Positions 8,804 through 26,294 of a DNA stretch of 64,000 bases are shown here, piece after piece. The position numbers and the translations under genes were made by a program. The notes beneath the pieces are model-generated. The model was not told the origin of the DNA, did not search any database, and worked only from the letters and a program-made list of their open reading frames with translations. Positions within the stretch are counted from its first letter, which is position 1, and the number at the start of each line of letters is the position of its first letter. The stretch is from a virus (taxonomy: Duplodnaviria > Caudoviricetes), in the IMG/VR virus record IMGVR_UViG_3300013426_000019, positions 64,001 through 128,000 of that record. One strand, 5' to 3'.

Positions 8804-9265
8804 ATGGACTATTATATATGTGTCAAGACTTATGAAGGTAGGGATCTAACGGGCAAGAAGGTTACAATACCAATTGGTTCGAGATTAGAGGCTAAGGGAG
8901 ACTTCCTGTATTGGGAGTCTATCCCCCTATGTACCTGGCGAAGTGACGTAGCTAAGAAGAACTTTGTGTGGGATGATAACTTCGAGTTAAGGGTATGGTA
9001 TCAGAATACAATCCTAGATGGAGACAGAGTAAGGACCTGGATTGAGAGGGTACCTAACTACGATGATAAGGGTAGAATTATAGGTACAAGAGAGGTTATA
9101 ATGCATGGCCCTTATAAACCAGAAGAGGTACTCTATATTAAAGAGCATTACCCTGACTTGGTACAGGCCGGTGAGGTTATAAACTACAGTGATGGGTTCT
9201 ACAAAGCTAGTATAGATAGATTAGAATCATTGGCTGAATATTGCAAGAGTATTGTGAACACTTAA
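8804..9265 (+). CDS. Hypothetical protein
   Basis: 153 aa ORF with AGGAG RBS, directly after the giant gene. Confidence 0.7.
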   Translation: MDYYICVKTYEGRDLTGKKVTIPIGSRLEAKGDFLYWESIPLCTWRSDVAKKNFVWDDNFELRVWYQNTILDGDRVRTWIERVPNYDDKGRIIGTREVIMHGPYKPEEVLYIKEHYPDLVQAGEVINYSDGFYKASIDRLESLAEYCKSIVNT

Positions 9266-9477
9266 GGTTATATTAGATAATAGAAGATGCAAGTGAGGAG
9301 GTCATACTCTCTGTCTTAAAATAGAGGGGACCTCTTAACCACACTAATTAAATGAATAAATCTTGGACGATATTGCCTTAAGTTAAAGTGAATCAATTAT
9401 GTTAAGTTTGGGAGGCTCTAAGATTAAATAAGGAGCCTCTTAGTTATTAAAGCAATATCATTAGGGAGATAAAAAAA

Positions 9478-12826: not shown

Positions 12827-14351
12827 GTGAACTACTCTTCAGCTAAAGACTGAAGAGCTTCTTTTCAAAGCATCACCACTTTGATTTTCTACTTCGTAGG
12901 ATACTCCACAAATCTCTGAGTTACAAAGATTTATTTCCATATCCTCCATAGACATGACTTCTTGCTGTTCCAGCAATAGAGTTGATTTTAAATCATCAAC
13001 TAGGATTCTAATTGCGTTTTCTTTTAAATTTTGAGCCGCATTTTGATCGCGTATGATTTTTGTTCCACATTCCGGACAAATCCAAACTCGATCTTTTAAT
13101 GTTAGCTCTTTATTAACGTAACCACAATGATTACAAGTTTTACTTGAAGGATAGAACCTATCAGATTTAATCACAAGACAATTATTAAACTTAGCTTTTT
13201 GCTCAAGTCTAGTTACAAATGTATACCAACTAGTATCTACATAATTTTTGGCATTATGACTGAACTTCATCATACCTCGAAGGTTAAGATCTTCAATTCC
13301 AATTACATCGTAATTCTGAACTAATCTTAAAGTTTCTTTCTCCCTGTAATCTTTTCTAATATTAGCAATATGATTCTCAAATCGAGCAAGCTTGATTCTC
13401 GCTTTTTCTCTATTTTTTGAATCTTTTTGTTTTCTTGCTAATCTTCGTTGTAGTCTTGTTAATTTTCTATTGTTTTCTTGTTTGGCTTTTTTGAAGTTTG
13501 GAGCTTCCTCATTTAAATCATTTATATATAACGAATTAGGACTGAAGTCTAAGCCGATTGCTTTATCTAACTTAATCGTTGAATAAACATCTTGTTCTTT
13601 TTCAAACAAGATTGAACACCAGTATTCCCCACAGGCATTTTTGGAGATAGTCATGTGTTTTGGAATAGCTTCTTTGAACCAACTTATCCATTTTTTAGAT
13701 TTATCTTCAGCGTGTCTAAATCTGACTTGCTTAAGTTTGGGAATAGTTACCAGCCTATGATCCCAATCTAGACAATTTTTAGGAAGCATGAAAAGTGAAA
13801 AGCTGTCCTTGTGTTGCTTCTTAGATTTGAATTTTGGAAAACCTACTTTCTTGCCTTTTCTTTGTTTGGTTATAGATTTAAAGAAGTTGCTGAATGCTTG
13901 TTCACAGTTTCTTTGACTTTGAATCAAAGGTTCAGCTATAGCATCACTTAAGAACTCATACTTCTCTTCTCTAAGTTGTTTTGGAAGTTTGCCTTTGAAT
14001 TTGTTTCTTTGATCTTTAGGCAAATCTTTGTTTGCATTGTACCACTCAATATGTTCAGCCAATCTTTCATTATAGAGTAATCTACAACAACCAAACGTTT
14101 TATTTAGGAGAATTTTTTGATTTTCGTCAGGATATAGTCTGATTTTTAAAGACCTATGAATTATACTAATTTTATCAGACATTGATCAAACTCCTTACTA
14201 GTTTGGTTTTTGTTTGGGGATATTTTAGAACTGCAATTCTAGAATATCCTGTTTTTATTTTTATACTATAATTAGTGACCAGGGTTTAAAAGGTTGAAAT
14301 CGCTGCATCCCTTAGACTAAAGACCTAAGAGTTTTAGCGATTTGGGTTTTT
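12827..14351 (-). mobile_element. Non-autonomous IS200/IS605-family element (tnpB only, IS1341-like)
   Basis: Subterminal hairpins with TCTTTAG loops at both ends; right end CTCTTCAGTCTTTAGCTGAAGAGTAGTTCAC; left end preceded by TTTAT (candidate TAM); left boundary approximate. Confidence 0.8.
12839..14182 (-). CDS. tnpB: TnpB RNA-guided endonuclease
   Basis: N-terminal KIRLYP..Q..LL.KTFGCCR HTH; RuvC residues IGLDF, IEDL, RDQNAA; CNHCG/CPECG zinc ribbon. Confidence 0.95.
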   Translation of the reverse strand: MSDKISIIHRSLKIRLYPDENQKILLNKTFGCCRLLYNERLAEHIEWYNANKDLPKDQRNKFKGKLPKQLREEKYEFLSDAIAEPLIQSQRNCEQAFSNFFKSITKQRKGKKVGFPKFKSKKQHKDSFSLFMLPKNCLDWDHRLVTIPKLKQVRFRHAEDKSKKWISWFKEAIPKHMTISKNACGEYWCSILFEKEQDVYSTIKLDKAIGLDFSPNSLYINDLNEEAPNFKKAKQENNRKLTRLQRRLARKQKDSKNREKARIKLARFENHIANIRKDYREKETLRLVQNYDVIGIEDLNLRGMMKFSHNAKNYVDTSWYTFVTRLEQKAKFNNCLVIKSDRFYPSSKTCNHCGYVNKELTLKDRVWICPECGTKIIRDQNAAQNLKENAIRILVDDLKSTLLLEQQEVMSMEDMEINLCNSEICGVSYEVENQSGDALKRSSSVFS

Positions 14352-14375
14352 ATAAAATTATGTTGTATTAAATGC

Positions 14376-14404
14376 TTGACCTTATCTACAAAATAGAGTA
14401 ATAT
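14376..14404 (+). promoter_or_regulatory. Sigma70-like promoter
   Basis: TTGACC-17nt-TAATAT. Confidence 0.5.
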
Positions 14405-14483
14405 ATAGATGTAAATAAGGAAAAAGCAAATTATATCAAAAAAAAAATGCGACTTATTATATAGTTCAGAATCTTATAAGGAG

Positions 14484-14987
14484 ATGAATAATAAAATGTC
14501 AGATTGGAAAACAGACAGAAGAAAAGCAGGAAAAGCAGCAGGTACAGAGGCCTGGAATGCACAGGTAGATCTTATTAATTTAGATGAGACAGCAAGACAG
14601 TTAGGTTATGCTCTTGCAGATAAGTACGGCTTCGGCGCCGGCAGTGAGGAAGGGTTACTTCTTGCAGGTTATGCATTGAGTGTTATTGGGGGCTATGATC
14701 TTGGTGAGTTCTCTAAAGATAAGGTGACCAAAGCAAATCAGATCTTCAACTCTATGGATAAAGCAGATGTCAAAAACTTCAAAGATGCTCTTAATAATCT
14801 CAAGGTTCAGCATGATGCTGCCTATGAAGTCTACAAACCAAAGGCAGCTAGACAGTTCTCCATGCAGGACTTCAATAAGGCTCTTGGATCAATTAAAAAA
14901 GGTCTCGATAGACTTGGGCTTACCGCTGACGAAGCAGAGGATGCCCTTGATAAAATTATAGATATCTTGGATACTTACTTAGACTAA
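14484..14987 (+). CDS. Hypothetical protein, paralog of 15013 (start may be 14496)
   Basis: MSDWKTDRRKA and FNKALGSIKKGL shared with the next ORF. Confidence 0.8.
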   Translation: MNNKMSDWKTDRRKAGKAAGTEAWNAQVDLINLDETARQLGYALADKYGFGAGSEEGLLLAGYALSVIGGYDLGEFSKDKVTKANQIFNSMDKADVKNFKDALNNLKVQHDAAYEVYKPKAARQFSMQDFNKALGSIKKGLDRLGLTADEAEDALDKIIDILDTYLD

Positions 14988-15012
14988 AGACAAGGCGAGG
15001 ACAAATAGAGAA

Positions 15013-15531
15013 ATGTCAGACTGGAAGGCTAATAGAAGAAAAGCAGTAACTGCCCTAACAAAAGCTGGAAGATATGGATACAGCTTTGCTTACGGTAAAG
15101 CATGCAAAGCTTATGGTCTGGCAAATGCCCTTGCCTATAAATATGGTTATAAAGGTGAAAGTGTACCAGGAAGTAAGAGAACAGAACGAGAGATCCTGGC
15201 AGACTACGTAACCTCTATAATATATGAGAGGCCTCTTGAAAATGACCCTATCAACAATCCCAATAAAGGTGAAAGGTTAAATAAAATCTTTGAGTCTATG
15301 GATCCTGAAGATGTTAAGGACTTCAAAGAGGAACTTAAAGAGCTCAAAAAGGACTATGATGAAGGCTATACCGAATACAAGGTAAAGATAGGCAAAAGAG
15401 ATGTTATGGCTAACTTCAATAAAGCTATAAGTGCTATAACAAAGGGTCTAGAAGGATTAGATATAGAGGAAACACGGAAAGTAAGCGTAATGGATGAGAT
15501 CTCAAATATCTTAGAAGGCTTACTAAATTAG
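15013..15531 (+). CDS. Hypothetical protein, paralog of 14484
   Basis: MSDWKANRRKA and FNKAISAITKGL. Confidence 0.8.
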   Translation: MSDWKANRRKAVTALTKAGRYGYSFAYGKACKAYGLANALAYKYGYKGESVPGSKRTEREILADYVTSIIYERPLENDPINNPNKGERLNKIFESMDPEDVKDFKEELKELKKDYDEGYTEYKVKIGKRDVMANFNKAISAITKGLEGLDIEETRKVSVMDEISNILEGLLN

Positions 15532-15793: not shown

Positions 15794-16873
15794 ATGTTGA
15801 GAGGATTAGAAAATCTTAAAATAAGATTCAAGTTAAAGCTGCATGCTTCGAGCTTCTTTTTATTTCCTAGAAAAAATAATATTATAACCAATATTATTAA
15901 TCTCCCTAAAAATATAGAAAATTTAAATGCCTCTAGAAATAAAGTTACTATTGAATTAAATTTAAAGTGCAATGCAAATTGTATTTTTTGCAGCAGAGAT
16001 GCTTCGGGGGCTAATAGAGGCTTTTCCTTAAGTTTTGAAGAAGTAAAGAATATTATTGAGACTTCTAAAAGATCAGGCACGCGCATGATAGAATTTACAG
16101 GAGGTGAGGCCCTTTTAGATTCTCTTCTGCCAGATTATTTAGATTACACTCATGAATTGGGAATGCAGACTCAGCTCATTACAAATACCCTTGGATTTAG
16201 CAATCCTATTTTATGCGAGCGACTTTTACCTAAATTAGATTCAATTGAAATGTCTGTACCTTGCGTTAATGAAAATACTTATAATAAATTGACAGGAAAA
16301 AAAGCATATTTTCAATTAATAACTGCTTTAAATAATATTAAAAAATCAGATTGCCAAAAGCAAGTATTTATAATAGCCCTTAAAAGTAATCTTCCTTATT
16401 TACTAGATACCCTGGAATTTTTTAAAGATTTTAGAAATTTAAACTACATATCTATAGTGTATCCTTTATTAGAGGGAAGAATGCATTCTCTTTTTGATGA
16501 ATATCTCTCTTTTTCGGAATTCAGATTTTATATTATACCTTTTTTAAAAAGAGCAAAAGATCTAGGTATTAATATAGTAGGAAGTAAGATACCTCTGTGT
16601 GCTTTTTTTCCTTATGAAAATTTTATTTTTATAAATTCAAAAGAATTTCCTTATAAAAAAAAAGTTATACGTAAATATAAAAATGAACATGTATGCGCTT
16701 ATAGGGAAGAAAATCTACTAGACGATCGAGTAAAATATTTAGAATGTAAAGAATGTATATATAAAGATTCTTGTTTAGGGGTTATAGGCGAGTATAAAAT
16801 TCTTTTTAAAAAAATAGATCCTATTACGCGAGAAAAAAATGAAAATAGATCAAAATATTTTTCAAAATTCTGA
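15794..16873 (+). CDS. Radical SAM protein, HxsC-like C-terminus (start uncertain)
   Basis: CNANCIFC, FTGGEAL, C-terminal CKECIYKDSCLG. Confidence 0.9.
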   Translation: MLRGLENLKIRFKLKLHASSFFLFPRKNNIITNIINLPKNIENLNASRNKVTIELNLKCNANCIFCSRDASGANRGFSLSFEEVKNIIETSKRSGTRMIEFTGGEALLDSLLPDYLDYTHELGMQTQLITNTLGFSNPILCERLLPKLDSIEMSVPCVNENTYNKLTGKKAYFQLITALNNIKKSDCQKQVFIIALKSNLPYLLDTLEFFKDFRNLNYISIVYPLLEGRMHSLFDEYLSFSEFRFYIIPFLKRAKDLGINIVGSKIPLCAFFPYENFIFINSKEFPYKKKVIRKYKNEHVCAYREENLLDDRVKYLECKECIYKDSCLGVIGEYKILFKKIDPITREKNENRSKYFSKF

Positions 16874-17837
16874 TTTTAAATCAATTTACAGCAGGGTGTA
16901 CAATGCTGAGAGTTTAGAAATAGGTACTCTTGAGCTAAATCTCAGGTGCAATCTTTCCTGCATCTTTTGCAGCCGAGAAGCCCATGTTTTTAAAAAAAGT
17001 GAGAATTTAATTCTTCCTGAAATTTTATCTTTTATTGAAAATAAAGACATTATAGTGTTTTGTGGGGGCGAGGCCCTGTTAGATTCTAGACTTCCTTATT
17101 TATTAGAGTATTGTAAAAAAACAGGAAAAAAGACCGCCTTAATATCAAATGGCATTCCTTTTTCAGATCCTAAAATTTGCAAAAGTATTTTAGAAAATTT
17201 GGATTTTCTTACTTTGTCTGTTACCTCCGTAGATTCTAAAATTTATAATTTTATGACGGATTCCAATCAATTTTCTCTTTTTCAAAAAGGTCTTGAAAAT
17301 ATAATGAAGGACCCTCATGAGAAAAATTTACATAAAAGTATAAATATAGTATTATTGAATTCAAATATAAACTATTTGCAAGATATTCCTTTATTTTTCG
17401 AGAAATTAGGAATGCATTCAGTTTTTCTCTACTCTCTTTTATACCCTATATATTTAGGTCGTCTATTAGACTTCCCTCAGGAATTTCCTAATCCAACTTC
17501 GGAAATTTTTCAAAAAAATTTAATGAATTTATGTAATCTTTTAAAGTCAAAAAATAAAATAATTAGATTTGAAAATATGTCGAGCTGTTTTATCCCAGAA
17601 ATAGACGCGGATTTTGTGGATTCCGAAGAAAATTACGGCAAACACTCTTTTTATTTAAAAAAAATTAATAATAAATTGATATCCTACACTAGAGATAGTA
17701 TTGTTGGAACTTATAAAAAGTCTTTTCGGTGTGAGTCCTGTTTGAAAAAAAATTATTGCAGAGGTTTACCGGAAGTAGCAAAAATATTATTTGAAAATAA
17801 AATTACCCCCTTCAAGAGGGGCAATAAGGAAAAATAA
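16839..17837 (+). CDS. Radical SAM protein, paralog of 15794
   Basis: ELNLRCNLSCIFCSR, FCGGEALLDS, CESCLKKNYCRG. Confidence 0.9.
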   Translation: MKIDQNIFQNSDFKSIYSRVYNAESLEIGTLELNLRCNLSCIFCSREAHVFKKSENLILPEILSFIENKDIIVFCGGEALLDSRLPYLLEYCKKTGKKTALISNGIPFSDPKICKSILENLDFLTLSVTSVDSKIYNFMTDSNQFSLFQKGLENIMKDPHEKNLHKSINIVLLNSNINYLQDIPLFFEKLGMHSVFLYSLLYPIYLGRLLDFPQEFPNPTSEIFQKNLMNLCNLLKSKNKIIRFENMSSCFIPEIDADFVDSEENYGKHSFYLKKINNKLISYTRDSIVGTYKKSFRCESCLKKNYCRGLPEVAKILFENKITPFKRGNKEK

Positions 17838-19109
17838 ATGTATAGTTTAAAACTAGGTTCTGCTTGCAACAATGACTGCATTCATTGTAATGTAAATTCA
17901 GAAGATAATATTGAAAATTTAATTTTTGAGGAAATTCGGGAGATAGTTGATGATATTCCTCAAGGGGAAATAATTTGTCTAGAAGGAGGGGAACCAACTC
18001 TAAGAGAAGACTTTTTTGATATAGTAGAGTATTGTGGTTTAAAAGGGCATAAAATAATACTCCAAACCAACGGCACGGGCCTCACGGAAGAAATCACCCA
18101 AAAAATAAAGCCTTTTGTAAAAAAAGTATATATATCTATATATTCTTCTAATTCTTATATTCATAATTTAATTACTAGAACTCATAATGAAAAAAGTACA
18201 TTTGAAAAAACAATACAAGCCTTAAAAAATCTCTATAGGTATTCTATTCCATTCAATACGCAAACAGTTATTTCTAAAATTAATATGGCTTCTTTATATG
18301 ATACTTTCTCCTTTATTCAAAAAGAATGCCCTGGTATTTTTATGTGTCTCACTTATCCTCATCCTATTAAAAATATTTGGGAAAATAAAATTTTAACATG
18401 TGTTTCTTTTAAGGAATTGAAGCCCTTTATTCAGCCTTGCTTCAGAGATTTCGGTCCTTTTTTAATAGTAGAGTCAATTCCTCCCTGTTATATATTTCCT
18501 TTTTATCAAAATATAGGATATAATTTAGACGCTATTATTAAAAATAAACTTTTAAAAAACGAGAATTACTATAAATATGGGGATGTAGAAAAATATCCAG
18601 TTAAAAACTTTAATTTTAAAAGAAAGGGCCCTAAATGTGTGGACTGCTTTTATTTTGAGGAATGTCTAGGTGTTTGGAAAGAATATGTAGATTTGTATAG
18701 ATTACATTTCGATCTTTTTCCTATAGATATAAAAACCCCCTGGAATATTTCTTTGGATAATTTTCTACAACTTGAGATAGATGATTTTTCTTATGAGGAT
18801 ATAAAAAAGATCCTAGAAAATAATAAAAATTATAAGCCTGTTTTAATTAAGATTAAAGATTTTTCAAAAAATCTTTCAATTAAATTGAATAGGGCAAAAG
18901 CAATATCTCAGATAGTAGACAATTATTCTTTCCCAATATCTTTTTTAGATATCCCTAAATGTTATTTAGAGCCCTTTACTGGAGTAATCAACACTTATCA
19001 AAAAAATTTTGAAAAAAATTCAGACAAATGTAAAAATTGCAATTTTAGAAAGGAGTGCTTTGGCTTTGATTTCAAATTAATTGATTCCAAGATGAAGGAT
19101 TGGAAATGA
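17838..19109 (+). CDS. Radical SAM protein, HxsC-like, with duplicated C-terminal Cys motif
   Basis: CNNDCIHC, GGEPTLR, LQTNG; CVDCFYFEECLG and a second CKNCNFRKECFG. Confidence 0.9.
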   Translation: MYSLKLGSACNNDCIHCNVNSEDNIENLIFEEIREIVDDIPQGEIICLEGGEPTLREDFFDIVEYCGLKGHKIILQTNGTGLTEEITQKIKPFVKKVYISIYSSNSYIHNLITRTHNEKSTFEKTIQALKNLYRYSIPFNTQTVISKINMASLYDTFSFIQKECPGIFMCLTYPHPIKNIWENKILTCVSFKELKPFIQPCFRDFGPFLIVESIPPCYIFPFYQNIGYNLDAIIKNKLLKNENYYKYGDVEKYPVKNFNFKRKGPKCVDCFYFEECLGVWKEYVDLYRLHFDLFPIDIKTPWNISLDNFLQLEIDDFSYEDIKKILENNKNYKPVLIKIKDFSKNLSIKLNRAKAISQIVDNYSFPISFLDIPKCYLEPFTGVINTYQKNFEKNSDKCKNCNFRKECFGFDFKLIDSKMKDWK

Positions 19110-19134
19110 AGCTATCTTAAAATAGGAGTGAAAA

Positions 19135-19824
19135 ATGCTAAGAATTTCTTTAGAAAAAGGTGAGGAAGGGTTTGAAATCTTAAAAAATTCTTTAATTGAG
19201 GACAGAGAATCTTTTTTAGAAAATAATTTTATAAAAAATAGAAAAGATATAATCACATTGATTCTTTTGGATAGAAATGTTATTTTTGAAAGGGTTCCTG
19301 AAAAAAGTAGCTCTTTTATAAAAGATAATATTTTCTGGATTAAAGCTCAGTACCCCGCTGTGCTTTCTTCTTCCCTTGCAGGAAGATATGAAAAGCCTTC
19401 TTTATTTCCAAAAGGAGAATTTCTTATAAGTTATTTTCGCTCTTTCACCTCTGAATCCCTTGCTAAAAGGGACTGGATTATTAATGAAATTCCTTATGCT
19501 CTTATTAATTCTATTTTAAAATTAAAAGGAAATGAGGAGTATAAAAATATTCAGTTAAGGGGGCATACAGTTCTCTATAAAAATAAAAAAGTTTTAGCAG
19601 AAGAAACTTTTTATAATTCTTCTTCAGTATTTTTTGATTGTCAGATTCATCTAGATTGGAATCAGGAAAGTTGGGATATTTATGATAAATATTGTAGTGA
19701 ATTTAAAAGTGCATATGAAAAGGGAAATCTTTTATCTTTATTAAATATTTCCAGAGAAGAATTTTTAAAAGTTTTTATATCCGAATTGGAAAATTTGGAA
19801 TATTTTATTAAAATAATGGAGTGA
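19135..19824 (+). CDS. Hypothetical protein, possible divergent lipoate/biotin ligase (LplA-like) fold
   Basis: IQLRGHTVLYKNKKVLAE resembles the ND(I/L)..NGKK(I/V)SG segment of BPL/LPL ligases; weak. Confidence 0.35.
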   Translation: MLRISLEKGEEGFEILKNSLIEDRESFLENNFIKNRKDIITLILLDRNVIFERVPEKSSSFIKDNIFWIKAQYPAVLSSSLAGRYEKPSLFPKGEFLISYFRSFTSESLAKRDWIINEIPYALINSILKLKGNEEYKNIQLRGHTVLYKNKKVLAEETFYNSSSVFFDCQIHLDWNQESWDIYDKYCSEFKSAYEKGNLLSLLNISREEFLKVFISELENLEYFIKIME

Positions 19825-19834
19825 ATTAAATTTT

Positions 19835-20107
19835 ATGGATGAAATTTGTACACGATGCGGAAAAAAGATAGAAAATACAAAAATAGAAATTAATTTAGGC
19901 TTTTCTGTTTTTAAAAGAGAAAATAATGTTTGGGGATTGTCTTTGGATCTTAATCAAAAATCTGTTGAAATTTTATGTGCAAATTGTTTTGATAATTTTT
20001 GCAATACTTTATTTATTAAAAATAATAATGAATTTTTAAAGAATTTTAATACATCTAAAAAAAATAAAGATCCTGTTGAAATTGACGGAAATGTGGACTA
20101 TAACTAG
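19835..20107 (+). CDS. Small zinc-finger protein
   Basis: CTRCG ... LCANC. Confidence 0.65.
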   Translation: MDEICTRCGKKIENTKIEINLGFSVFKRENNVWGLSLDLNQKSVEILCANCFDNFCNTLFIKNNNEFLKNFNTSKKNKDPVEIDGNVDYN

Positions 20108-20132
20108 TTAATTTTTTTAACAGACTTAAGCA

Positions 20133-20166
20133 AGAAATCCCTTTGCTTTAGTCAAAGGTTATTCAC
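20133..20166 (+). mobile_element. Orphan IS200/IS605-type right-end remnant
   Basis: AGAAATCCCTTTG-CTTTAGT-CAAAGG-TTATTCAC has the same layout (stem, CTTTAG loop, TTCAC end) as the right end at 12827-12860. Confidence 0.55.
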
Positions 20167-20210
20167 ACTAAAGATTAAGTCTTAAAAATTTTGAAGGAGG
20201 GTTTTAAGTA

Positions 20211-21077
20211 ATGTTTGAATTTTTAACAGACACAGGATCTGAAATAGATAATTACCTTAGAGAATCCTTAAATATAGGCCTTCTCAGGACGGGTGTTACT
20301 TTAAAAACAAGAGAGATCTTTTCAGATGCGAATTGGGATAATGTAAATGCTTTTGAATTTTTCAAAGATTTAGAAGAGGGCGTAGTAAGCATATATCAGC
20401 CCGCAATGAATTACTGGAAAGATATTGTAGAAGAGATATTTAAGAAGGGTAAAGACGTATTATTTTTAGGTATGTCCTCCAGATTTACAGGGGGAATCAA
20501 AAATCTTAACATTATTAAAATGCTTCTGAGTCCTATTTATCCTGACAGAAAATTAGTAATTTTGGACTCAGGGCTTGTTGCAGGAGGCGAGAAATGTCTA
20601 GTATTAGCTGTAGCAGAGTATTTAAAGGATAAAAGAGAAGAAGATGTAGAAAAAATAGCCTCTGAAATAAAAATCAAGTTTTTAGGCAGAGGAATAACTT
20701 ATTGGATTTTAGATTCTTTAAAATTCTATATGAAGGCTAATAGAGGTTTAGATTCTTTTAAAGATTTGAATATTCCTAAAGGTTATCCTATAATAAAATC
20801 TGAGAATGGCAGCTTTTTTTTAAAAGGATTATTTAATTCAAAAGAAGATGCTTTGGAAGCACTAATAGGGGATATAAAACTCTCATCTATAGAGACTTTG
20901 GAGTTTACTTACTCTCCGGACTGGGATTTAAAAAAGATAAGAGAAGTAGTAAATCAGCTGGAATCTAATTTAAATATTATTATTAATCATAATATTACTT
21001 ATCAGAGCCCGTCAGTTACTGCTGTAACAGGGCCTTATTCTTATAGTATAGGAGTTTTAAAAAATGTTACTTTTTAA
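20211..21077 (+). CDS. DegV/FakB-family fatty-acid-binding protein
   Basis: LTDTGSEI, YQP, MSSRFTG, ILDSGLVAGG, LDSLKFY...NR, SPSVTAVTGP match the DegV motif order; 288 aa. Confidence 0.8.
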   Translation: MFEFLTDTGSEIDNYLRESLNIGLLRTGVTLKTREIFSDANWDNVNAFEFFKDLEEGVVSIYQPAMNYWKDIVEEIFKKGKDVLFLGMSSRFTGGIKNLNIIKMLLSPIYPDRKLVILDSGLVAGGEKCLVLAVAEYLKDKREEDVEKIASEIKIKFLGRGITYWILDSLKFYMKANRGLDSFKDLNIPKGYPIIKSENGSFFLKGLFNSKEDALEALIGDIKLSSIETLEFTYSPDWDLKKIREVVNQLESNLNIIINHNITYQSPSVTAVTGPYSYSIGVLKNVTF

Positions 21078-21241
21078 TGAAGCTTTTAAATCTTGTTAAA
21101 AAACCTCTAATCCTTAGAAGATCAAAGGGTATTCTTTTTTTAATACTTCCTTATACTAATTATATATAATAAGTCAACATAATATTTCTTATGTAAATAA
21201 TTAATTTTGGTAATTGACATCTAATTTAGGAAGGATATAAT

Positions 21242-21517
21242 ATGAAGGATACAAATATTGAATTGTCTGCAGAAGACAGACAAGATATAAATCTGTCTTT
21301 AGAGGTTATTAATACCGCAGAATTTGAATTGAGGAATATATCGGGATTTGAGAATCTCAAAGAAGAAGAAGTACGAAATATTTACCAAGGGGCTTGTGAT
21401 GCCCTGATAGAAGGGAGAGTAATGCTACATCTTCTTCGCCAAGAATTTGTAAAAAAATATAATATTCCATATGATTTTATTTCCATCGATGGTCATATTT
21501 ATTTACAAGAGGATTAA
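21242..21517 (+). CDS. CXXX-repeat peptide modification system protein-like (TIGR04116-like)
   Basis: 91 aa, ELSAEDRQDI ... KKYN....IDGHIYL; next to CXXX substrates and maturase. Confidence 0.55.
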   Translation: MKDTNIELSAEDRQDINLSLEVINTAEFELRNISGFENLKEEEVRNIYQGACDALIEGRVMLHLLRQEFVKKYNIPYDFISIDGHIYLQED

Positions 21518-21520
21518 ATA

Positions 21521-22537
21521 ATGGCGGTTATCCCTGACAATCAAAATTTTTTATCTACAGACAAGAATACCCCCCTAAAGGAAGCACAATTAAAATCTTT
21601 ACTAGCACAAGCTATTACAGCGAGAGCTAAAAGAGGTTGGACTACTTCTGAAGACAGTATCAGTCTCTATACTCATAGGGTGTCCCTTTCTCAGATGAAT
21701 GATATGTCAAACGTTATTATTGACAAGTCATCCGATCAGCATATTCCTTATAGTAGTTCACCTTATCCTAAAGCAATTTCCTCAGGGTCGAAAGTTTTTG
21801 CTAAAGCTACAGATTATAATGAATTGCAACAAGCAGTAAATGATATATCTAATAATATTATGTGCGAAGGTTGTAGTAATACTTGTTATGCAAGCTGTGC
21901 AAATTCTTGTGCTTCAAGTTGCACTAGTACTTGTGTTAATTTATGTACAGATAATTGTGGCTCTTCCTGCACAGACACTTGTAACAGCATAAGTTGTAAT
22001 AATGCAAATTGTTCTGCGGCTAATTGTTCTTCGGTAGCTTGTACAAAAACCAACTGCTCCTCAGGAAGTTGTTCTTTCGGTGCTTGTAATGCCTCGGGAT
22101 GTGATAAAGGCTCTTGCGAGAATGGTTCATGTCATCAAAGTTCTTGTGAGAGATCAGGATGCAACTATGATAGTTGTGATTCTACTTCCTGTGATTCTGG
22201 TTCTTGTGATACAGGCTCTTGTAGTCAGAAGACATGCAGCGATTCCGGGTGTAGTAAAGATACATGTGGCAAGGCCACCTGTTCTAGTGGGGCCTGCAAC
22301 GGTGGTGAATGCAATTCAGGAGCTTGCGCGAGAAGTGGCTGCGACGCTTCTAATTGTTCCACGGATAGTTGTGATGACGCAGACTGCAATGCGGACCCTT
22401 GCAGCAATAATACATGCAATAGCACGGGCTGCAGCCACGATAGCTGCTCTAATAACACTTGTGACTCTGATGATTGTAGCACTGCCACTTGTTACAGCGG
22501 GGATTGCAATGGTGGATCTATGAATAAATCACATTAA
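21521..22537 (+). CDS. Cys-repeat protein: 114-aa Cys-free N-domain plus 46 periodically spaced Cys
   Basis: One Cxx, then 9 Cxxx units, then 36 Cxxxx units, counted from the translation. Confidence 0.9.
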   Translation: MAVIPDNQNFLSTDKNTPLKEAQLKSLLAQAITARAKRGWTTSEDSISLYTHRVSLSQMNDMSNVIIDKSSDQHIPYSSSPYPKAISSGSKVFAKATDYNELQQAVNDISNNIMCEGCSNTCYASCANSCASSCTSTCVNLCTDNCGSSCTDTCNSISCNNANCSAANCSSVACTKTNCSSGSCSFGACNASGCDKGSCENGSCHQSSCERSGCNYDSCDSTSCDSGSCDTGSCSQKTCSDSGCSKDTCGKATCSSGACNGGECNSGACARSGCDASNCSTDSCDDADCNADPCSNNTCNSTGCSHDSCSNNTCDSDDCSTATCYSGDCNGGSMNKSH

Positions 22538-22551
22538 AGGAGATTTTTAAA

Positions 22552-22746
22552 ATGGGTATATGCTCAGGATGCTGGGGAAATTGCAATAAGGGCTGTTCTG
22601 GTGATTGTAATAATAAATGTATTTCCACTTGCACCGGATCTTGTGTAGGATCATGTTCAGGATTATGTGAAAATACATGTACAGATACCTGTATTAATAC
22701 TTCTAAAAATGATACTCGTATTACTTCTTTTGTCGTAAAATTTTAA
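22552..22746 (+). CDS. CXXX-repeat radical SAM target peptide (TIGR04114-like)
   Basis: 64 aa with 12 Cys in Cxx then Cxxx register; AAGGAG RBS; directly upstream of the maturase. Confidence 0.9.
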   Translation: MGICSGCWGNCNKGCSGDCNNKCISTCTGSCVGSCSGLCENTCTDTCINTSKNDTRITSFVVKF

Positions 22747-22755
22747 GGGGTTTAA

Positions 22756-23940
22756 ATGATTAAAAAATGGAATGCCTTTAGTGGTTATAATATAACAATC
22801 AATACTACTGAAGATTGTAATTTAAGATGCAAATATTGTTACGAGATATATAAAAAACCTGGAAATATAGATCTTAATACAGCTAAGAAATTTATAGATT
22901 TTATTTTCGATGATCCCGACCCTACCAATATAAAAGATGAAAGGCCAGATGCTTATGATGGATTGATTTTAGACTTAATTGGGGGTGACGCCCTAATGAA
23001 TGCTGATATTTTAGATGATATTTTTAAATATGTAAATACTCGTTGGGCTTTAAGTGATAAATTCAAAAAACATGGTTGGAGATCCTCAATATCTTCAAAT
23101 GGTACGCTATTCTACAAAAAGGAAGTTCGAGATTTTTGTGAAAAATGGCAAGACCACTTAAGTTTAGGGGTGTCAATTGATGGTTGTCCCACTATTCATA
23201 ATAAGAATAGAATATTTTGTGATGGTAGGGGGAGTATGTCTACTATTCTAGAGTGGTGGCCCTGGTATAGAAAAATATTCCCCGTAAATTCTTTAGAGAC
23301 AAAGGCAACTTGCAATAAAGACTCTATTCCTTATTTATATGAATCTTTGAAATGGATGCATGAGGAATTAGGGTTAAGATGGATTAATCAGAATTTTATT
23401 GGGGAAAACATGGATCTCATCGAAAAGGATCTTCAAGAATTAGACAAACAACTTGAAAAGTGCTGTGATTATTGTTTAAAACATAAAGAAGATCTTTATT
23501 GGTCAATTCTAGGAGAGAGATTCCAATTTCCACGCAATGAAAAATATGATTCTACCTTTGCTACTGCAAGTTGTGGAGCAGGACAGATGCCCGCTTGTTC
23601 TATTAAAGGTGATTTATATCCTTGTTTTAGATGGCTGCCTCAATCTCAGGGGGATAAATTTGCAAAATATAAAATTGGAAATATCCATGGTAAATTAAAT
23701 AAAAACCTCTTTAAGGAGGTCAGAACTTTAGCAAGGGCTTCTAATTGCACAAAGGAAAATAAATGCTTAGAATGTGAGTATTCTTCAGCTTGTGTTTGGT
23801 GTGTAGCTGGCTCTTTCGCAGAGTATGATGATTTTATTAGACAAACTCATATATGTGAGGTAACAAAACTCCAATGTAAATGGGCAAAAATTTATGTAGA
23901 GAAATTAAAGGAGAGTTTAAATGAAAATACAAAAGTTTGA
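22756..23940 (+). CDS. Radical SAM/SPASM peptide maturase, CXXX-repeat target family (TIGR04115-like)
   Basis: TEDCNLRCKYCY, LIGGDAL, VSIDG..IHNKNR.FCDGRGS; SPASM CGAG..GDLYPCFR..CLEC..SACVWC...HIC. Confidence 0.9.
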   Translation: MIKKWNAFSGYNITINTTEDCNLRCKYCYEIYKKPGNIDLNTAKKFIDFIFDDPDPTNIKDERPDAYDGLILDLIGGDALMNADILDDIFKYVNTRWALSDKFKKHGWRSSISSNGTLFYKKEVRDFCEKWQDHLSLGVSIDGCPTIHNKNRIFCDGRGSMSTILEWWPWYRKIFPVNSLETKATCNKDSIPYLYESLKWMHEELGLRWINQNFIGENMDLIEKDLQELDKQLEKCCDYCLKHKEDLYWSILGERFQFPRNEKYDSTFATASCGAGQMPACSIKGDLYPCFRWLPQSQGDKFAKYKIGNIHGKLNKNLFKEVRTLARASNCTKENKCLECEYSSACVWCVAGSFAEYDDFIRQTHICEVTKLQCKWAKIYVEKLKESLNENTKV

Positions 23941-24325
23941 GGGAATGATAGGGCCTTGCGGAATATTTGATGATAGTCTAGGTATGACTAATGATGAAGT
24001 TCCTGTTTCCTTAGAAAATAATGTTTATAGTGACGCTATGAACTTAGATGGATGTAATTATACCGCCCTATTATTAGATTCTTTAGATTTAAATCTCCTT
24101 AGACCTAATTTAAGATCCTACATAAGGAATGCTATTTTAAATAAGGCGCAGACTTCTTTTGTATATGGTGAACTCTTACGCCCTTTCAATAAAGCCTGTA
24201 AAGAACTGGGGATTGAATGTAACCCTCACATTACCCCTGATGGAATATTTATTAATATGGAAGATTATTTTACTTGGCAGAAATTATATTTCCATCATCC
24301 AACAAAAAGTGAAAAGAGAGCTTAA
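23921..24325 (+). CDS. Hypothetical protein in the maturase operon
   Basis: Overlaps the maturase stop; GGAG RBS. Confidence 0.7.
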   Translation: MKIQKFEGMIGPCGIFDDSLGMTNDEVPVSLENNVYSDAMNLDGCNYTALLLDSLDLNLLRPNLRSYIRNAILNKAQTSFVYGELLRPFNKACKELGIECNPHITPDGIFINMEDYFTWQKLYFHHPTKSEKRA

Positions 24326-24333
24326 ATTAAAAT

Positions 24334-24621
24334 ATGGAAGAAATAAGTGAAAAAAAAGAAATTACTAAAGAGTATCTAATATTTTTGTATTCAAAATTAA
24401 AAAAAGAATTGAATGAAGCTTTTCAAAGTTTCCAGGAAAATTTAAAAGCTGAAGATATAAGAGAATTAAATACTAAAGTAGCAGACATACAATCCAGGGC
24501 TCGATTATTAATTATGTTTATAATTTCTAATTGTGAATTAGATAATTTATCTACCACTATAGCTAATGTTAAAAAATGGCAAGAGGAAATTACTTGTGAG
24601 CAGCTATTTTCTCAGAATTAA
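24334..24621 (+). CDS. Hypothetical helical protein
   Basis: 95 aa ORF, last gene with island-like composition. Confidence 0.6.
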   Translation: MEEISEKKEITKEYLIFLYSKLKKELNEAFQSFQENLKAEDIRELNTKVADIQSRARLLIMFIISNCELDNLSTTIANVKKWQEEITCEQLFSQN

Positions 24622-24682
24622 TTTTTAATGTTTTAGAGGAGCTTTGGAGCTCCTCTTTATATTATATATGGAGGCCGTTGGT

Positions 24683-25489
24683 ATGCATTACTTAACATCC
24701 ATTCTCGACAAGCTCAAAGAGCATGAAGTACAACTCAATAACATAAACGTCTTTCCTATAGCAGACAAGGATACCGGAACCAACCTCTTCAAGACCTTAA
24801 ATGTAGAGGTAGATGCCACTAACTTCAGAGACTTCCTATTCAAGTTATCTGACAAGGTTCTTTACTCAGCCAGGGGCTCCAGTGGCAACATACTAGCACT
24901 ATACCTCCTTGGCCTCAAGGAGAACTACAATGATAACATAGTAGAGACCTGTAGGGGCGCAGCCCAGTTTACATGGAACACGATGTATGAGCCTCAAGAG
25001 GGTACGATACTCACAGCCATGAAGGCCTATCCAACAATCTTTGAAGGCCCTAAACAATACATAGGAGACTTCTACAACAACGTTTTAGATTGCCTTATGA
25101 GAGGACCAGACTTACTACCTATTTTAAAGCAGCACAACACAATAGACTCAGGAACCTTAGGGTTTACATACATCTTACAAGGACTATATGAGGCCATAGT
25201 AGGCGAATCCTTACCAACACCAGAACTCACTTTATCCCCTGTAGATACCTCAATCACACCGGAAGAGAAGACTTACTGTGTAGAGTTATTACTAGAGGGC
25301 AACCACAAGGAGGAGCTAGGATTCCTTAAAGATTATGGTGATGAGTTGATAATCCTCACCTTAAACAACGAAGCCACCAAGCTCCACATACACACAGACA
25401 ATTATCAAGAGGTTATACGTAGAGTAGAAGGGGTGGCACAAATTAAGGCCACAAAGGTAGACAACATGAAGGAACAAGGCAAGGCTTGA
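24683..25489 (+). CDS. DAK2-domain fatty acid kinase subunit A-like protein (short form lacking the C-terminal domain)
   Basis: NVFPIADKDTGTNL, ARGSSGNIL, PQEGTILT, DSG, YCVELLL, KLHIHT, KVDNMKEQ are FakA/YloV motifs; start moved to the ATG after GGAGG. Confidence 0.88.
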   Translation: MHYLTSILDKLKEHEVQLNNINVFPIADKDTGTNLFKTLNVEVDATNFRDFLFKLSDKVLYSARGSSGNILALYLLGLKENYNDNIVETCRGAAQFTWNTMYEPQEGTILTAMKAYPTIFEGPKQYIGDFYNNVLDCLMRGPDLLPILKQHNTIDSGTLGFTYILQGLYEAIVGESLPTPELTLSPVDTSITPEEKTYCVELLLEGNHKEELGFLKDYGDELIILTLNNEATKLHIHTDNYQEVIRRVEGVAQIKATKVDNMKEQGKA

Positions 25490-25514
25490 CAATTTTAAGG
25501 TGTTGTAATATAAT
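25486..25514 (+). promoter_or_regulatory. Consensus sigma70 promoter
   Basis: TTGACA-17nt-TATAAT. Confidence 0.85.
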
Positions 25515-25534
25515 TATATTAGAGAGGTGATATA

Positions 25535-26294
25535 GTGAGCAAAGCAAAGACCCTAACTAACTTAGAGCCTCAGCACAATACATGGATGCGAGAGTATCAG
25601 CGACTCTTATATGAGGAGAGAAGATTCGATGAGGGCTCGCTCAACACTATTATGACTCAAAGCAAGAAGGGTATGATAATTATATCAACAGGGCGAAGTT
25701 CTGTCAATAGTAGTATCCCTGGGAACGACTTATCTGAAGAGTTTGAAGCATGGTGTTACAAGACAAAGAGAAGACCTAACAAAGCATCCGAAGATAAATA
25801 TTTAGAGGAGAGGAATGCTCAAGCCGATAGAGAACTTAAAGAGGAATTGAAGAGCGGTGATAACCCTTATGTATATATACCTGTATATGGTGCTTACAAA
25901 GGCAAGGATGAAGTAGTAGATGAGAGTGAGAAGTCTTACATAATCTTCAACTCCTACAATCGTTATAAGGGTAAACAAGGATCCTGGGAAGACTTATATG
26001 AGAGAGCATTAGAGTGGTGTATTAAGTATAAGCAGGACTCTGTCTTTGTGCAACCTCCCAACCAACCCCCCCTATTATGCAAACCAACAAGGCCAAAGGA
26101 TAAGCAAGAGTAGTTCAGGGAAGTTCAAGTTCAATGTTGAGAGTGAGACATACTTCACAACTATTAAGAGGAAGAAGTCTGCTCCTAACTTCACAGCAGA
26201 TATTATATTTGAGAACTATATAAGAAGGGATCTACCAGCATCTCTAATTGATAAGATGAGGAGAACACAATATGGGGAACTTTGGAAGTTATGA
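25535..26294 (+). pseudogene. SAM lyase (T3 SAMase)-like gene split by a frameshift at a C7 run (26066-26072)
   Basis: ORFs 25535-26113 and 26046-26294 join as ..VQPPNQPPYYANQQ.. if one C is removed; motifs IISTGRS, N....RELKEEL, GAY, EKS, KQDSVFV. Confidence 0.55.

Follow-up and report, generated by a model that had tools for sequence, protein, structure and literature searches.

Do four radical SAM (rSAM) genes, two Cys-repeat protein genes and a DegV/DAK2 pair that lie together in a phage genome belong to one protein modification system? The question is raised by positions 15794–25489 of the window, a 64,000-nucleotide stretch of a 158,768-bp IMG/VR virus contig from a metagenome, whose completeness is estimated at 74% (phage genome size ~215 kb). 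All ORFs that an earlier note on this DNA had listed were found where it placed them, and the island lies entirely on the + strand. What could be established directly is the gene content, how the proteins relate to known families, how they are conserved and that the catalytic motifs are intact. The modules of the island form a mosaic, not a single obligate system, and on balance we lean towards reading the region as a three-module mosaic in a giant phage, consisting of a core operon, an upstream module and a fatty acid kinase. The analysis suggests that a protein of the phage, probably one of the virion, undergoes a hitherto undescribed enzymatic finishing. We found no paper describing phage modules of rSAM and Cys-repeat fibre genes; the kinase link, the Cx4 register and the genome with 11 radical SAM matches are new. 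Most core-bearing phages carry only 1–5 rSAM genes, and the density in other giant phage records is ~1 per 80 kb. All four rSAM proteins of the island scored above the Pfam gathering threshold, and CX3CX2C is present in each.

Core operon for Cys-repeat proteins

The core comprises a helper gene, the genes for a 338-aa and a 64-aa Cys protein, and a maturase gene (21242–23940); the core operon extends to two further ORFs (21242–24621). The earlier note had recognised a phage-borne CXXX-type maturation module for Cys-repeat proteins, a reading well supported by homology and conservation, and both Cys-repeat proteins were confirmed. The larger one (338 aa, 46 Cys; 21521–22537) starts with a Cys-free N-domain of 114 aa, alignable in 10 loci, followed by a Cys ladder of 215 residues, and its cysteines are spaced once as Cx2, nine times as Cx3 and 35 times as Cx4. 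The repeat region contains 21% Cys with Ser/Asn/Asp/Gly spacers, and AF2 was unable to fold it (pLDDT ~30). The version in locus L005 has six Cx4 units fewer. The smaller protein (64 aa, 12 Cys; 22552–22746) keeps a Cx3 register (Cx2, then ten Cx3) from its first Cys at residue 4, is 88–91% identical in L004 and L005, and gave weak TIGR04117 and TIGR04114 matches below cut-off.

The rSAM/SPASM maturase (394 aa; 22756–23940) is of the CXXX-repeat target type. TIGR04115 was by far its best family match (E = 3.4e-64), which argues for the preferred reading, with a score of 217.6 bits that lies below the cut-off of 350; PapB (146 bits), QhpD (76 bits) and SCIFF (67 bits) also scored below their cut-offs. 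The N-terminal recognition domain is absent. Many of the 674 maturase homologues lie on contigs of 180–390 kb, and over 28 homologues neither CX3CX2C nor the SPASM cysteines vary, except for C353S in this phage. The helper (91 aa; 21242–21517) had been described as TIGR04116-like. The ORF itself gave no match. Of 13 aligned family members, three did (best E-value 1.1e-8), which assigns the helper to TIGR04116 by transitivity. Its AF2 model (pLDDT 94.4) shows a strand, two long helices and a beta-hairpin, with no fold match in the PDB. The two further ORFs, of 134 aa (23921–24325, overlapping the maturase stop) and 95 aa (24334–24621), matched no family, in line with their earlier listing as unknown, and occur only in L004 and L005 (93% and 88% identity, respectively).

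The helper/Cys-protein/maturase trio was found in eight loci (L004, L006, L008, L010, L016, L017, L018 and L035), the L011 helper, used for alignment only, being outside this count; L040 is a ninth. Maturase identity across the trio loci is 47–58%, and across distant phages the maturase is strictly co-located with Cys proteins and a TIGR04116-family helper. Most likely, the radical SAM enzyme staples the 46-Cys protein. The maturase would act on two substrates, the 338-aa protein and the leaderless 64-aa Cys ladder, with the small TIGR04116-family protein assisting it. By analogy with its nearest characterised relatives, PapB and other thioether-forming SPASM enzymes, from which we infer the chemistry, it would install many short-range Cys thioether staples, and the result would be a rod braced by covalent bonds, made from a sequence without predictable fold. 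Two observations count against this reading, namely the maturase score below the TIGR04115 cut-off and the Cx3/Cx4 spacing of both Cys proteins, which leaves no regular Asp/Glu acceptor of the kind present in PapB substrates. Thioethers would be sensible for a phage whose assembly and life take place under reducing, anoxic conditions, since disulfides do not hold there.

Upstream radical SAM module and fatty acid kinase pair

The upstream module begins with rSAM1 (359 aa; 15794–16873; PF04055, 54.6 bits), rSAM2 (332 aa; 16839–17837; 45.5 bits) and rSAM3 (423 aa; 17838–19109; 75.1 bits), the first two overlapping by 35 nt. Their description as HxsC-like held, in that HxsC/HxsC4 were among the best NCBIfam matches, though far below cut-off; the best named relative of the rSAM3 family is likewise HxsC/HxsC4, below cut-off. 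In addition to CX3CX2C, rSAM1 (85% identical in L004) has a C-terminal CxxCx5C, and two such motifs are present at the rSAM3 C-terminus. rSAM3 shares 46% identity with the final rSAM of a His/Ser-repeat cluster in the same genome and has homologues (36–37% identity) in L037 and L038, beside S74 fibre-like proteins and DegV–DAK2. An rSAM2 homologue in L039 (43% identity) also adjoins DegV–DAK2. The next ORF (229 aa; 19135–19824), conserved only in L004 (87%), has no detectable family; its proposed likeness to LplA was not borne out by Pfam, NCBIfam or PHROGs, in which it had no match, and Atlas scores were ≤0.79. The reported zinc finger is a Zn-ribbon protein (90 aa; 19835–20107) with two CxxC pairs, 41% identical to a paralogue at the end of the His/Ser-repeat cluster; homologues are present in L005 and L038, and a similar CxxC ORF was recognised by eye in L037. 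Among the core-bearing records compared, the rSAM1–3 set was found only in the closest relative, and rSAM1–3 follow DegV/DAK2, not the Cys core. Together with the 229-aa ORF and the Zn-ribbon, they may form a swappable accessory cassette.

Both kinase assignments were upheld. The DegV/FakB-like fatty-acid-binding protein (288 aa; 20211–21077) scored 63.7 bits against PF02645 (cut-off 27) and gave weak matches to solved FakB1 structures. In the DAK2 protein (268 aa; 24683–25489), Dak2 and FakA-like_M domains were detected (PF02734, PF21645), corresponding to the N (Dak2) and L (middle) domains of FakA without FakA_C. It aligns to solved FakA 7w7h (E = 5e-20), retains the Mg-binding and phosphate motifs DKDTGTN and ARGSSGN as well as the FakA_L HxH, and belongs to a family of 52 short homologues, four of them on contigs of 147–278 kb. 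A TTG start at 24644 was replaced by the ATG at 24683, which has GGAGG upstream, fits the homologue length and, from sequence, is most likely the gene start. [quoted passage not shown] The DegV and FakA N+L proteins would constitute a minimal fatty acid kinase, which should make acyl-phosphate.

The co-occurrence of DegV, DAK2 and rSAM1–3 with the CXXX module, as proposed earlier, held only in part. It is missing from most relatives: DegV is absent from all five other viral records with a related maturase (four of them 88–100% complete), and DAK2 from 4/4 records tested. However, three diverged lineages, namely the window clade, L035 and L040, have DegV and DAK2 beside the Cys core, flanking or preceding it. 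L008, although syntenic with L040, lacks both genes; in L040, DegV–DAK2 is inserted between otherwise syntenic genes. Moreover, the two genes, which the Cys operon separates here but which elsewhere lie next to each other, adjoin HxsC-like rSAMs in L037, L038 and L039, and an rSAM lies within ~7 kb in six of seven DAK2 lineages sampled. The kinase pair is thus rare in relatives yet repeatedly beside the Cys core or HxsC-like rSAMs, indicating that the coupling is optional, not accidental. Kinase–core coupling is therefore recurrent but accessory.

A less probable but serious alternative is that the modules share a variable accessory region but are independent of one another, with a self-sufficient Cys core and a kinase pair unrelated to the Cys proteins. 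DegV/FakA N+L would then be an auxiliary metabolic pair that, during infection, channels fatty acids of the host towards phospholipid synthesis, in keeping with the known role of Fak in providing acyl-phosphate for PlsX/PlsY (PMC9136124), and it may act with the HxsC-like rSAMs on lipid. Consistent with this, most core-bearing genomes lack DegV and DAK2, and DAK2 is solitary amid 7-deazaguanine genes in L036, both of which also count against the preferred reading; in L039, DegV–DAK2 is accompanied by a single rSAM2-like gene, with no repeat protein in the stretch inspected. The DegV subtype (35% identity in L004, 25% in L005, 45% in L035) is swapped between close relatives independently of the core. 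DegV, core operon and DAK2 are also set apart by terminator-like hairpins (consensus matches only), one in the gap that separates DegV from the core operon (21104–21128), with a T-run on either side, and one with a 9 bp stem and T-rich tail at the operon end (24635–24656, +), and GC3 breaks from 0.15–0.30 (rSAM1 to the 95-aa ORF) to a backbone-like 0.49 in the DAK2 gene, which again tells against the preferred reading as well. In contrast, independence does not readily explain the three diverged lineages in which DegV–DAK2 immediately adjoins the Cys core, including the L040 insertion, nor L037, in which the pair immediately neighbours a His-rich S74 protein, nor L038, in which one gene cluster contains both the pair and an S74 protein; such a pattern is hard to obtain by chance. 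The kinase pair recurs next to repeat or fibre proteins that rSAMs would modify. In the three-module mosaic, it may feed activated lipid into the same finishing pathway or, alternatively, act together with the HxsC-like rSAMs on lipid. No acyltransferase candidate was identified, and acylation of the Cys proteins would be pure conjecture.

Virion association and alternative roles of the Cys proteins

Many phage contigs contain the core, and tail genes are often its neighbours. A tail protein (phrog_3267, E = 2e-57) lies immediately upstream of it in L011, and baseplate wedge genes ~2.5 kb downstream in L016; L008 has a fibritin-like gene. The analogous His-rich protein of L037 carries a Peptidase_S74 tail-fibre chaperone domain and is tail-fibre-like by PHROG, and the L038 cluster likewise starts with an S74 protein (domain assignment only). 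Since the core lies among tail, baseplate and fibre genes in unrelated phages, we infer from these neighbourhoods that its product is most likely virion-associated. The window encodes a tail-fibre-like protein at 171–1670; its nearest recognisable tail-like gene is ~14 kb away, past a TnpB element, which counts against this reading. In our view, the product is somewhat likelier than not to be a Cys-repeat protein stapled by thioethers, probably associated with the virion and optionally decorated with lipid-linked or other groups.

It is quite unlikely that the Cys-repeat proteins are instead intracellular or envelope-targeted effectors, acting in superinfection exclusion or anti-defence or as a RiPP-like toxin freed at lysis. 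Repeat proteins matured by rSAM enzymes can be effectors, as is HxsA in the bacterial HXS defence, which stops phage DNA entry (PMC13128918); rSAM1–3 are HxsC-like, the same phage has a His/Ser-repeat protein with six rSAMs, and the 64-aa peptide is within RiPP size. However, no signal peptide was found in the island, and family searches of the neighbourhood revealed no protease or exporter, an arrangement unlike a secreted bacteriocin system, as the earlier note had said. Furthermore, the substrates are large, with a conserved ~110-aa N-domain, and the core recurs in tail and baseplate neighbourhoods. The His/Ser cluster has no HxsA–D model match at E ≤ 1e-12, the HxsB match of the 423-aa rSAM is weak (59.5 bits vs. 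a 370-bit cut-off), and PADLOC matches were to generic viperin-type rSAM only. A metallothionein-like role in metal or iron–sulfur binding or storage, for example providing clusters for the phage rSAMs, with the maturase otherwise employed, would suit the Cys content and spacers, the missing predictable fold of the repeat region alone and the 11 radical SAM matches, but is very improbable given a maturase within the peptide-modifying SPASM clade, its strict tie to Cys proteins and helper in distant phages, and the few rSAM genes of most core-bearing phages.

Comparison with known systems

The closest parallel is the CXXX-repeat system (TIGR04114 target, TIGR04115 maturase, TIGR04116 associated protein), which has the same three-part make-up, in which targets with Cys at every fourth position are joined by a small associated protein and a SPASM maturase that lacks the N-terminal recognition domain. 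The phage set differs in being phage-borne and below all curated cut-offs, in its main target of 338 aa with a 114-aa N-domain and 35 Cx4 rather than Cx3 spacings, and in the added accessory rSAMs and fatty acid kinase. To our knowledge, the bacterial system is predicted only, with no experimental work.

The phage maturase is also related to the SPASM radical SAM enzymes of PapB/freyrasin and of ranthipeptides and sactipeptides (CteB/SCIFF, QhpD), which form Cys thioether crosslinks in Cys-rich substrates. In contrast to the PapB/freyrasin type, the phage substrates have no regular C-X3-D/E acceptor motif and, instead of short leader-bearing peptides, are proteins whose Cys number reaches 46 (92 elsewhere), and the island has neither protease nor exporter.

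With Firmicutes FakA/FakB, the phage pair shares a DegV-family binder and a Dak2 kinase with FakA middle domain and HxH. Unlike FakA, the phage kinase lacks FakA_C, the FakB-binding domain; the phage DegV does not reach the NCBIfam cut-offs for DegV and FakB1, and the genes are phage-borne and linked to rSAM clusters, not to plsX/plsY.

Finally, HxsC/HxsC4 of the HxsABCD system (PMC13128918) is the nearest named family of rSAM1–3, and the theme of rSAM enzymes maturing a repeat protein is common to both, the same genome having a His/Ser-repeat protein and several rSAMs. rSAM1–3 score 42–68 bits, far under the 268-bit cut-off, the island lacks HxsA, HxsB and HxsD, and the His/Ser cluster does not match Hxs models; moreover, the genes here are phage-encoded, whereas HXS is a bacterial anti-phage defence.

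The cysteine core

The phage origin of the window is clear. The IMG/VR record that contains it at bases 64001–128000 is 158,768 bp long and 74% complete by CheckV, which corresponds to a genome of ~215 kb. PHROG matches in the window comprised tail-fibre-like, DnaB helicase, homing endonuclease and QueC-like proteins, and a 2368-aa protein is a member of a phage-only family. TnpB elements were also present, and no tRNA gene was found within the 64-kb window. All genes listed for the island (15794–25489) by the earlier note were recovered on the plus strand; four island proteins passed the Pfam Radical_SAM threshold, and DegV scored above its own. That description was therefore largely right, apart from the label "LplA-like" for the ORF at 19135–19824, which had no Pfam, NCBIfam or PHROGs match and only chance-level Atlas scores. 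An LplA/BPL identity was rejected, as no family was detectable in any library. The island had no megablast match in GenBank phages, PADLOC returned only generic viperin-type radical SAM (rSAM) similarity, and the phage motif CACTAATTATA showed no enrichment.

The best NCBIfam match of the maturase (22756–23940) was TIGR04115, the CXXX-repeat target maturase, with an E-value of 3.4e-64 and 217.6 bits, below the cut-off of 350; against the PapB model NF047865 it scored 146.2 bits, below the cut-off of 340. The CX3CX2C motif (C21/C25/C28) and the SPASM cysteines C273, C290, C331, C337, C340, C346, C349 and C367 were invariant in 28 homologues. Other SPASM peptide maturases align to the window enzyme only from their residue 80–100 on, so it lacks their N-terminal recognition domain, which makes a separate helper protein plausible. 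Residue 353 is Cys in 26 of the 28 homologues, and Ser replaces it only in this phage and the relative at 95% identity; the clade with C353S is also the clade whose large substrate has Cx4 (Cys, then four residues to the next Cys) rather than Cx3 spacing.

By direct count, the 338-aa protein (21521–22537) contains 46 Cys, spaced by one Cx2, nine Cx3 and then an uninterrupted 35 Cx4, and the 64-aa protein (22552–22746) contains 12 Cys, with one Cx2 followed by 10 consecutive Cx3. Four positions past each Cys, Cx3 units have the following Cys and Cx4 units mostly Ser, Thr or Gly, and a residue count showed no regular C-X3-D/E motif of the PapB substrate type in either window protein. Against TIGR04114 (mark 20 bits), the 64-aa protein scored 17.6 bits and the 338-aa protein had no match; a search of five virus records with this model was uninformative, since the controls were silent too. 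Proteins with such tandem stretches (Cys ladders) usually carry a Cys-free N-domain of ~100–125 residues, which is alignable between loci; searches with this domain found no match in a large protein collection or in GenBank phages. Because Cx3 spacing prevails in the other loci, a long run of Cx4 sets the clade of the window apart. In one of the two closest loci, L005, the large Cys protein (8856–9782) is exactly six Cx4 units shorter than that at 21521–22537 (308 vs. 338 aa), and this difference between near-identical phages shows that repeat number is variable. The AF2 model of the 338-aa protein had a mean pLDDT of 42, with ~30 in the repeat region, and was too poor for a fold search; the missing predictable fold fits a structure that depends on modification.

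The candidate helper orf91 (21242–21517) did not itself match TIGR04116, although three of its 13 aligned homologues did, with a best E-value of 1.1e-8. Its model (pLDDT 94.4) consists of a strand, two long helices and a beta-hairpin; Foldseek found nothing in the PDB at E ≤ 0.001, and a PqqD-like RRE fold was likewise absent. The predicted complex of orf91 with the N-domain of the 338-aa protein reached a score of 0.21 (mark 0.32), which speaks neither for nor against binding.

The core occurs widely and is self-contained. At E ≤ 0.001 the maturase had 674 homologues, and the best 120 of these were 47–95% identical, many of them on contigs of 180–390 kb; in a scan of viral contigs, a single maturase query found nothing and a profile query did find relatives. 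Loci on other contigs were examined at maturase identities of 95% (L004 and L005), 47–58% (L006, L008, L010–L018 and L035) and 54% (L040). A maturase, a small orf91-type protein and at least one Cys-ladder protein occur together in L004, L006, L008, L010, L016, L017, L018, L035 and L040. L011–L014 contain a Cys protein and a candidate helper, and the L015 contig ends just upstream of the maturase. An rSAM of Erwinia and Salmonella jumbo phages was 24–26% identical, and the one neighbouring ORF translated there was not Cys-rich. No paper on phage rSAM/Cys-repeat modules was found in the literature. In L006, from a Hadza-gut giant phage, a second, different rSAM/Cys-protein pair lies 2–4 kb from the core (13272–15509, minus strand); the rSAM has 411 aa, and its partner, of 330 aa, combines 46 Cys in a mixture of CxC and CxxC patterns with a Cys-free C-terminal domain.

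Structural genes recur beside the core. In L011–L014, one of which (L013) is classed as a provirus, a tail protein (phrog_3267, E = 2e-57, scanned in L011) and an 1105-aa protein lie directly upstream. Baseplate wedge genes follow the core within ~2.5 kb in L016, a fibritin-like gene is downstream in L008, and three proteins with tail-fibre-style N-termini are downstream in L010. The window itself has two giant proteins and a tail-fibre-like protein 3–20 kb upstream, on the far side of a TnpB element. The island showed no signal peptide, protease or exporter. We infer that the product of the Cys core is virion-associated, probably tail-associated.

The probable fatty acid kinase pair

DegV (20211–21077) matched PF02645 over its full length (63.7 bits vs. 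a cut-off of 27) and remained below the NCBIfam cut-offs for TIGR00762 (58.8 vs. 99.7) and FakB1 (22 vs. 350). The DAK2 protein (24683–25489) matched PF02734 (35.9 bits vs. a cut-off of 27) and FakA-like_M (PF21645, 43 bits). Its start is most likely ATG 24683, given homologues of 262–290 aa with 93–95% cover of the longer reading and a GGAGG 8 nt upstream. The resulting 268-aa protein stops after the middle domain and thus has no FakA_C; its homologues span 262–325 aa, and PF13684 was found on one distant match only. Alignment to 7w7h, 7ed6 and 7rm7 showed that the Mg-binding motif DKDTGTN and the ARGSSGN motif are kept, and the FakA_L HIH aligned with HVH of 7w7h. An upstream Cys in YCVE was spotted by eye, outside any tool alignment; the catalytic residues of FakA_L are Cys/His/His (PMC9136124). 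In S. aureus, FakA_N and FakA_L restore kinase activity, and FakA_C only binds FakB (PMC9136124). Considering the kept motifs and this sufficiency, DegV and DAK2 likely form a functional enzyme that makes acyl-phosphate. DAK2 matches in GenBank "phage" records of Listeria, Enterococcus and Staphylococcus were 27–31% identical, look like bacterial FakA and were set aside.

The earlier note had coupled this pair to the Cys-repeat module, and the survey bore this out only in part. DegV was absent from all five other virus records with a related maturase, four of them 88–100% complete, and DAK2 was absent from 4/4 records; DAK2 does adjoin the core in the window clade, L035 and L040. The DAK2 family comprised 52 short FakA N+L proteins, four of them on contigs of 147–278 kb, and neighbourhoods were sampled in seven lineages, i.e. 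six besides the window clade. In L035, DAK2 has the entire island next to it; there are two DegV genes, and DAK2 is followed by a second orf91 paralogue. In L040, DegV–DAK2 directly precede the helper, maturase and Cys proteins, inserted in a gene order otherwise as in L008. In L037, the pair abuts a His-rich protein with Peptidase_S74, a tail-fibre chaperone domain; rSAMs, a Zn-ribbon and an rSAM3-like gene come next. In L038, it ends a cluster of an S74 fibre, an rSAM3-like rSAM, another rSAM, a Zn-ribbon, a glycosyltransferase and YcaO. The pair faces an rSAM2-like gene in L039, and DAK2 occurs alone in L036. The clusters with S74 proteins span 9186–17284 of L037 and 1–10819 of L038; the S74 protein whose sequence was read, that of L037, is His-rich and tail-fibre-like. 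Both clusters look like a sister toolkit for a different repeat protein.

Exchange among close relatives was also evident. L004 is 86–98% identical to the window over the core and DAK2, 83–87% over rSAM1–3 and just 35% over DegV, and L005 has, in place of the upstream cassette, different rSAMs together with two glycosyltransferases and a DegV of a third type. DegV subtype A occurs in the window and L035 (copy a), and subtype B in L004, L038 and L035 (copy b); these swapped subtypes resemble FakB isoforms. At the sampled DAK2 loci, the association of HxsC-like rSAMs with DegV/DAK2 is no looser than that of the Cys maturase. The DegV–DAK2 pair is not a chance neighbour; like the HxsC-like rSAMs, it is an optional accessory module whose association recurs and is non-random.

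The HxsC-like enzymes and the composition of the island

For rSAM1 (15794–16873), rSAM2 (16839–17837) and rSAM3 (17838–19109), HxsC and HxsC4 were among the best NCBIfam matches (42–71 bits; cut-offs 268 and 500), with respective scores of 44.5, 42.2 and 68.1 bits against HxsC TIGR03977, whose cut-off of 267.9 was not reached. rSAM3 had 1319 relatives at E ≤ 1e-10 in a library of 1.8 billion proteins, and those scanned likewise had HxsC/HxsC4 as best match below cut-off. "HxsC-like" is therefore a fair description and not a statement of membership. HxsA, HxsB and HxsD partners were not found in the island. The 159-kb record has 11 Radical_SAM (PF04055) matches, and four other giant phage records (258–388 kb) have 1–5 each.

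A second low-GC rSAM cluster lies outside the window in the same phage (G000:C1:33479–45833 of the whole record, equal to L034 3507–15833). One of its products, of 246 aa, has 13 His-x-Ser motifs at its two ends, and another is an aldo-keto reductase bearing Cys motifs of the ferredoxin type. Six rSAMs and a glycosyltransferase-like gene are also present, as is a paralogue of rSAM3 (46% identity) with a Zn-ribbon paralogue (41% identity) after it. A bona fide HxsABCD system there was unsupported, the Hxs models being unmatched. The bacterial HXS system is an anti-phage defence in which an rSAM-matured effector blocks DNA entry (PMC13128918), and this precedent keeps alive the less likely alternative that the presumed rSAM-matured repeat proteins of the phage are effectors.

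Except for DAK2, the island is compositionally foreign to the phage backbone: GC3 is 0.15–0.30 from rSAM1 to orf95 (15794–24621), 0.49 in DAK2, 0.39–0.45 downstream and 0.32–0.49 in flanking genes. Genes are tightly packed from rSAM1 to DegV. A hairpin flanked by T-runs follows DegV, and another, with a T-rich tail, follows orf95. A "perfect" sigma-70 promoter at 21214–21241 was not relied on, its -10 box lying between the orf91 RBS and ATG. Just past the DAK2 stop (25486–26113), a 12/12 sigma-70 consensus precedes a 192-aa ORF with a weak S-AdoMet lyase match (PF23780, E = 6e-4, below cut-off), and two clear S-AdoMet lyase genes lie 7–9 kb from the Cys core in L006; a SAM lyase next to many SAM-consuming enzymes is odd. 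Directly upstream of rSAM1 (14484–15531) lies a tandem pair of paralogous ORFs (167 and 172 aa), both with an M..SDWK..RRKA start, which are conserved in L004 and whose only match was DUF7399 (E = 0.0017, orf172, below cut-off). An intact TnpB (OrfB_IS605 and Cas12f-like TNB domain; 12839–14182, minus strand) sits between the giant structural-looking genes and the island, and TnpB genes also adjoin DegV–DAK2 in L039 and lie near DAK2 in L035.

Possible role and relation to known systems

The earlier interpretation of a crosslinking and possibly acylating system was partly right: its CXXX-type core stands, with thioether chemistry as the probable reaction, and the kinase pair and HxsC-like rSAMs belong to it as optional modules only. 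Acylation would draw on the product of the kinase pair. It is possible, if doubtful, that giant phages of anoxic habitats use a modular toolkit of SPASM maturases, HxsC-like rSAMs, glycosyltransferases, YcaO and a minimal fatty acid kinase to finish virion fibre proteins with dozens of Cys-ladder thioether staples and an acyl-phosphate-derived lipid. If true, this would be the first case of a virus particle component crosslinked and lipidated by enzymes, RiPP and Fak chemistry would have found a new use, and phages would be applying the radical SAM chemistry of peptide antibiotics to proteins of full size. With up to 46 staples, a chain would be braced covalently without need of oxygen or disulfides, which would be a new principle in how virions are built, and the enzymes would be a source of catalysts for protein-sized substrates. 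The recurrent link to a minimal kinase also raises the questions of how phages use acyl-phosphate and how FakA N+L finds its DegV partner. As the module is common in metagenomic giant phages, one biochemical study would annotate a large family, the maturase homologues.

The putative crosslinking core represents a diverged, phage-encoded version of the predicted CXXX-repeat system (TIGR04114–04116) with protein-sized substrates; its maturase shares TIGR04115 as best family but misses the curated cut-off. It differs from the PapB ranthipeptide system both in the maturase, which falls under the NF047865 cut-off, and in substrates without a regular C-X3-D/E motif. The DAK2 protein shares the Dak2 and FakA_L domains with FakA, but not the FakB-binding FakA_C.
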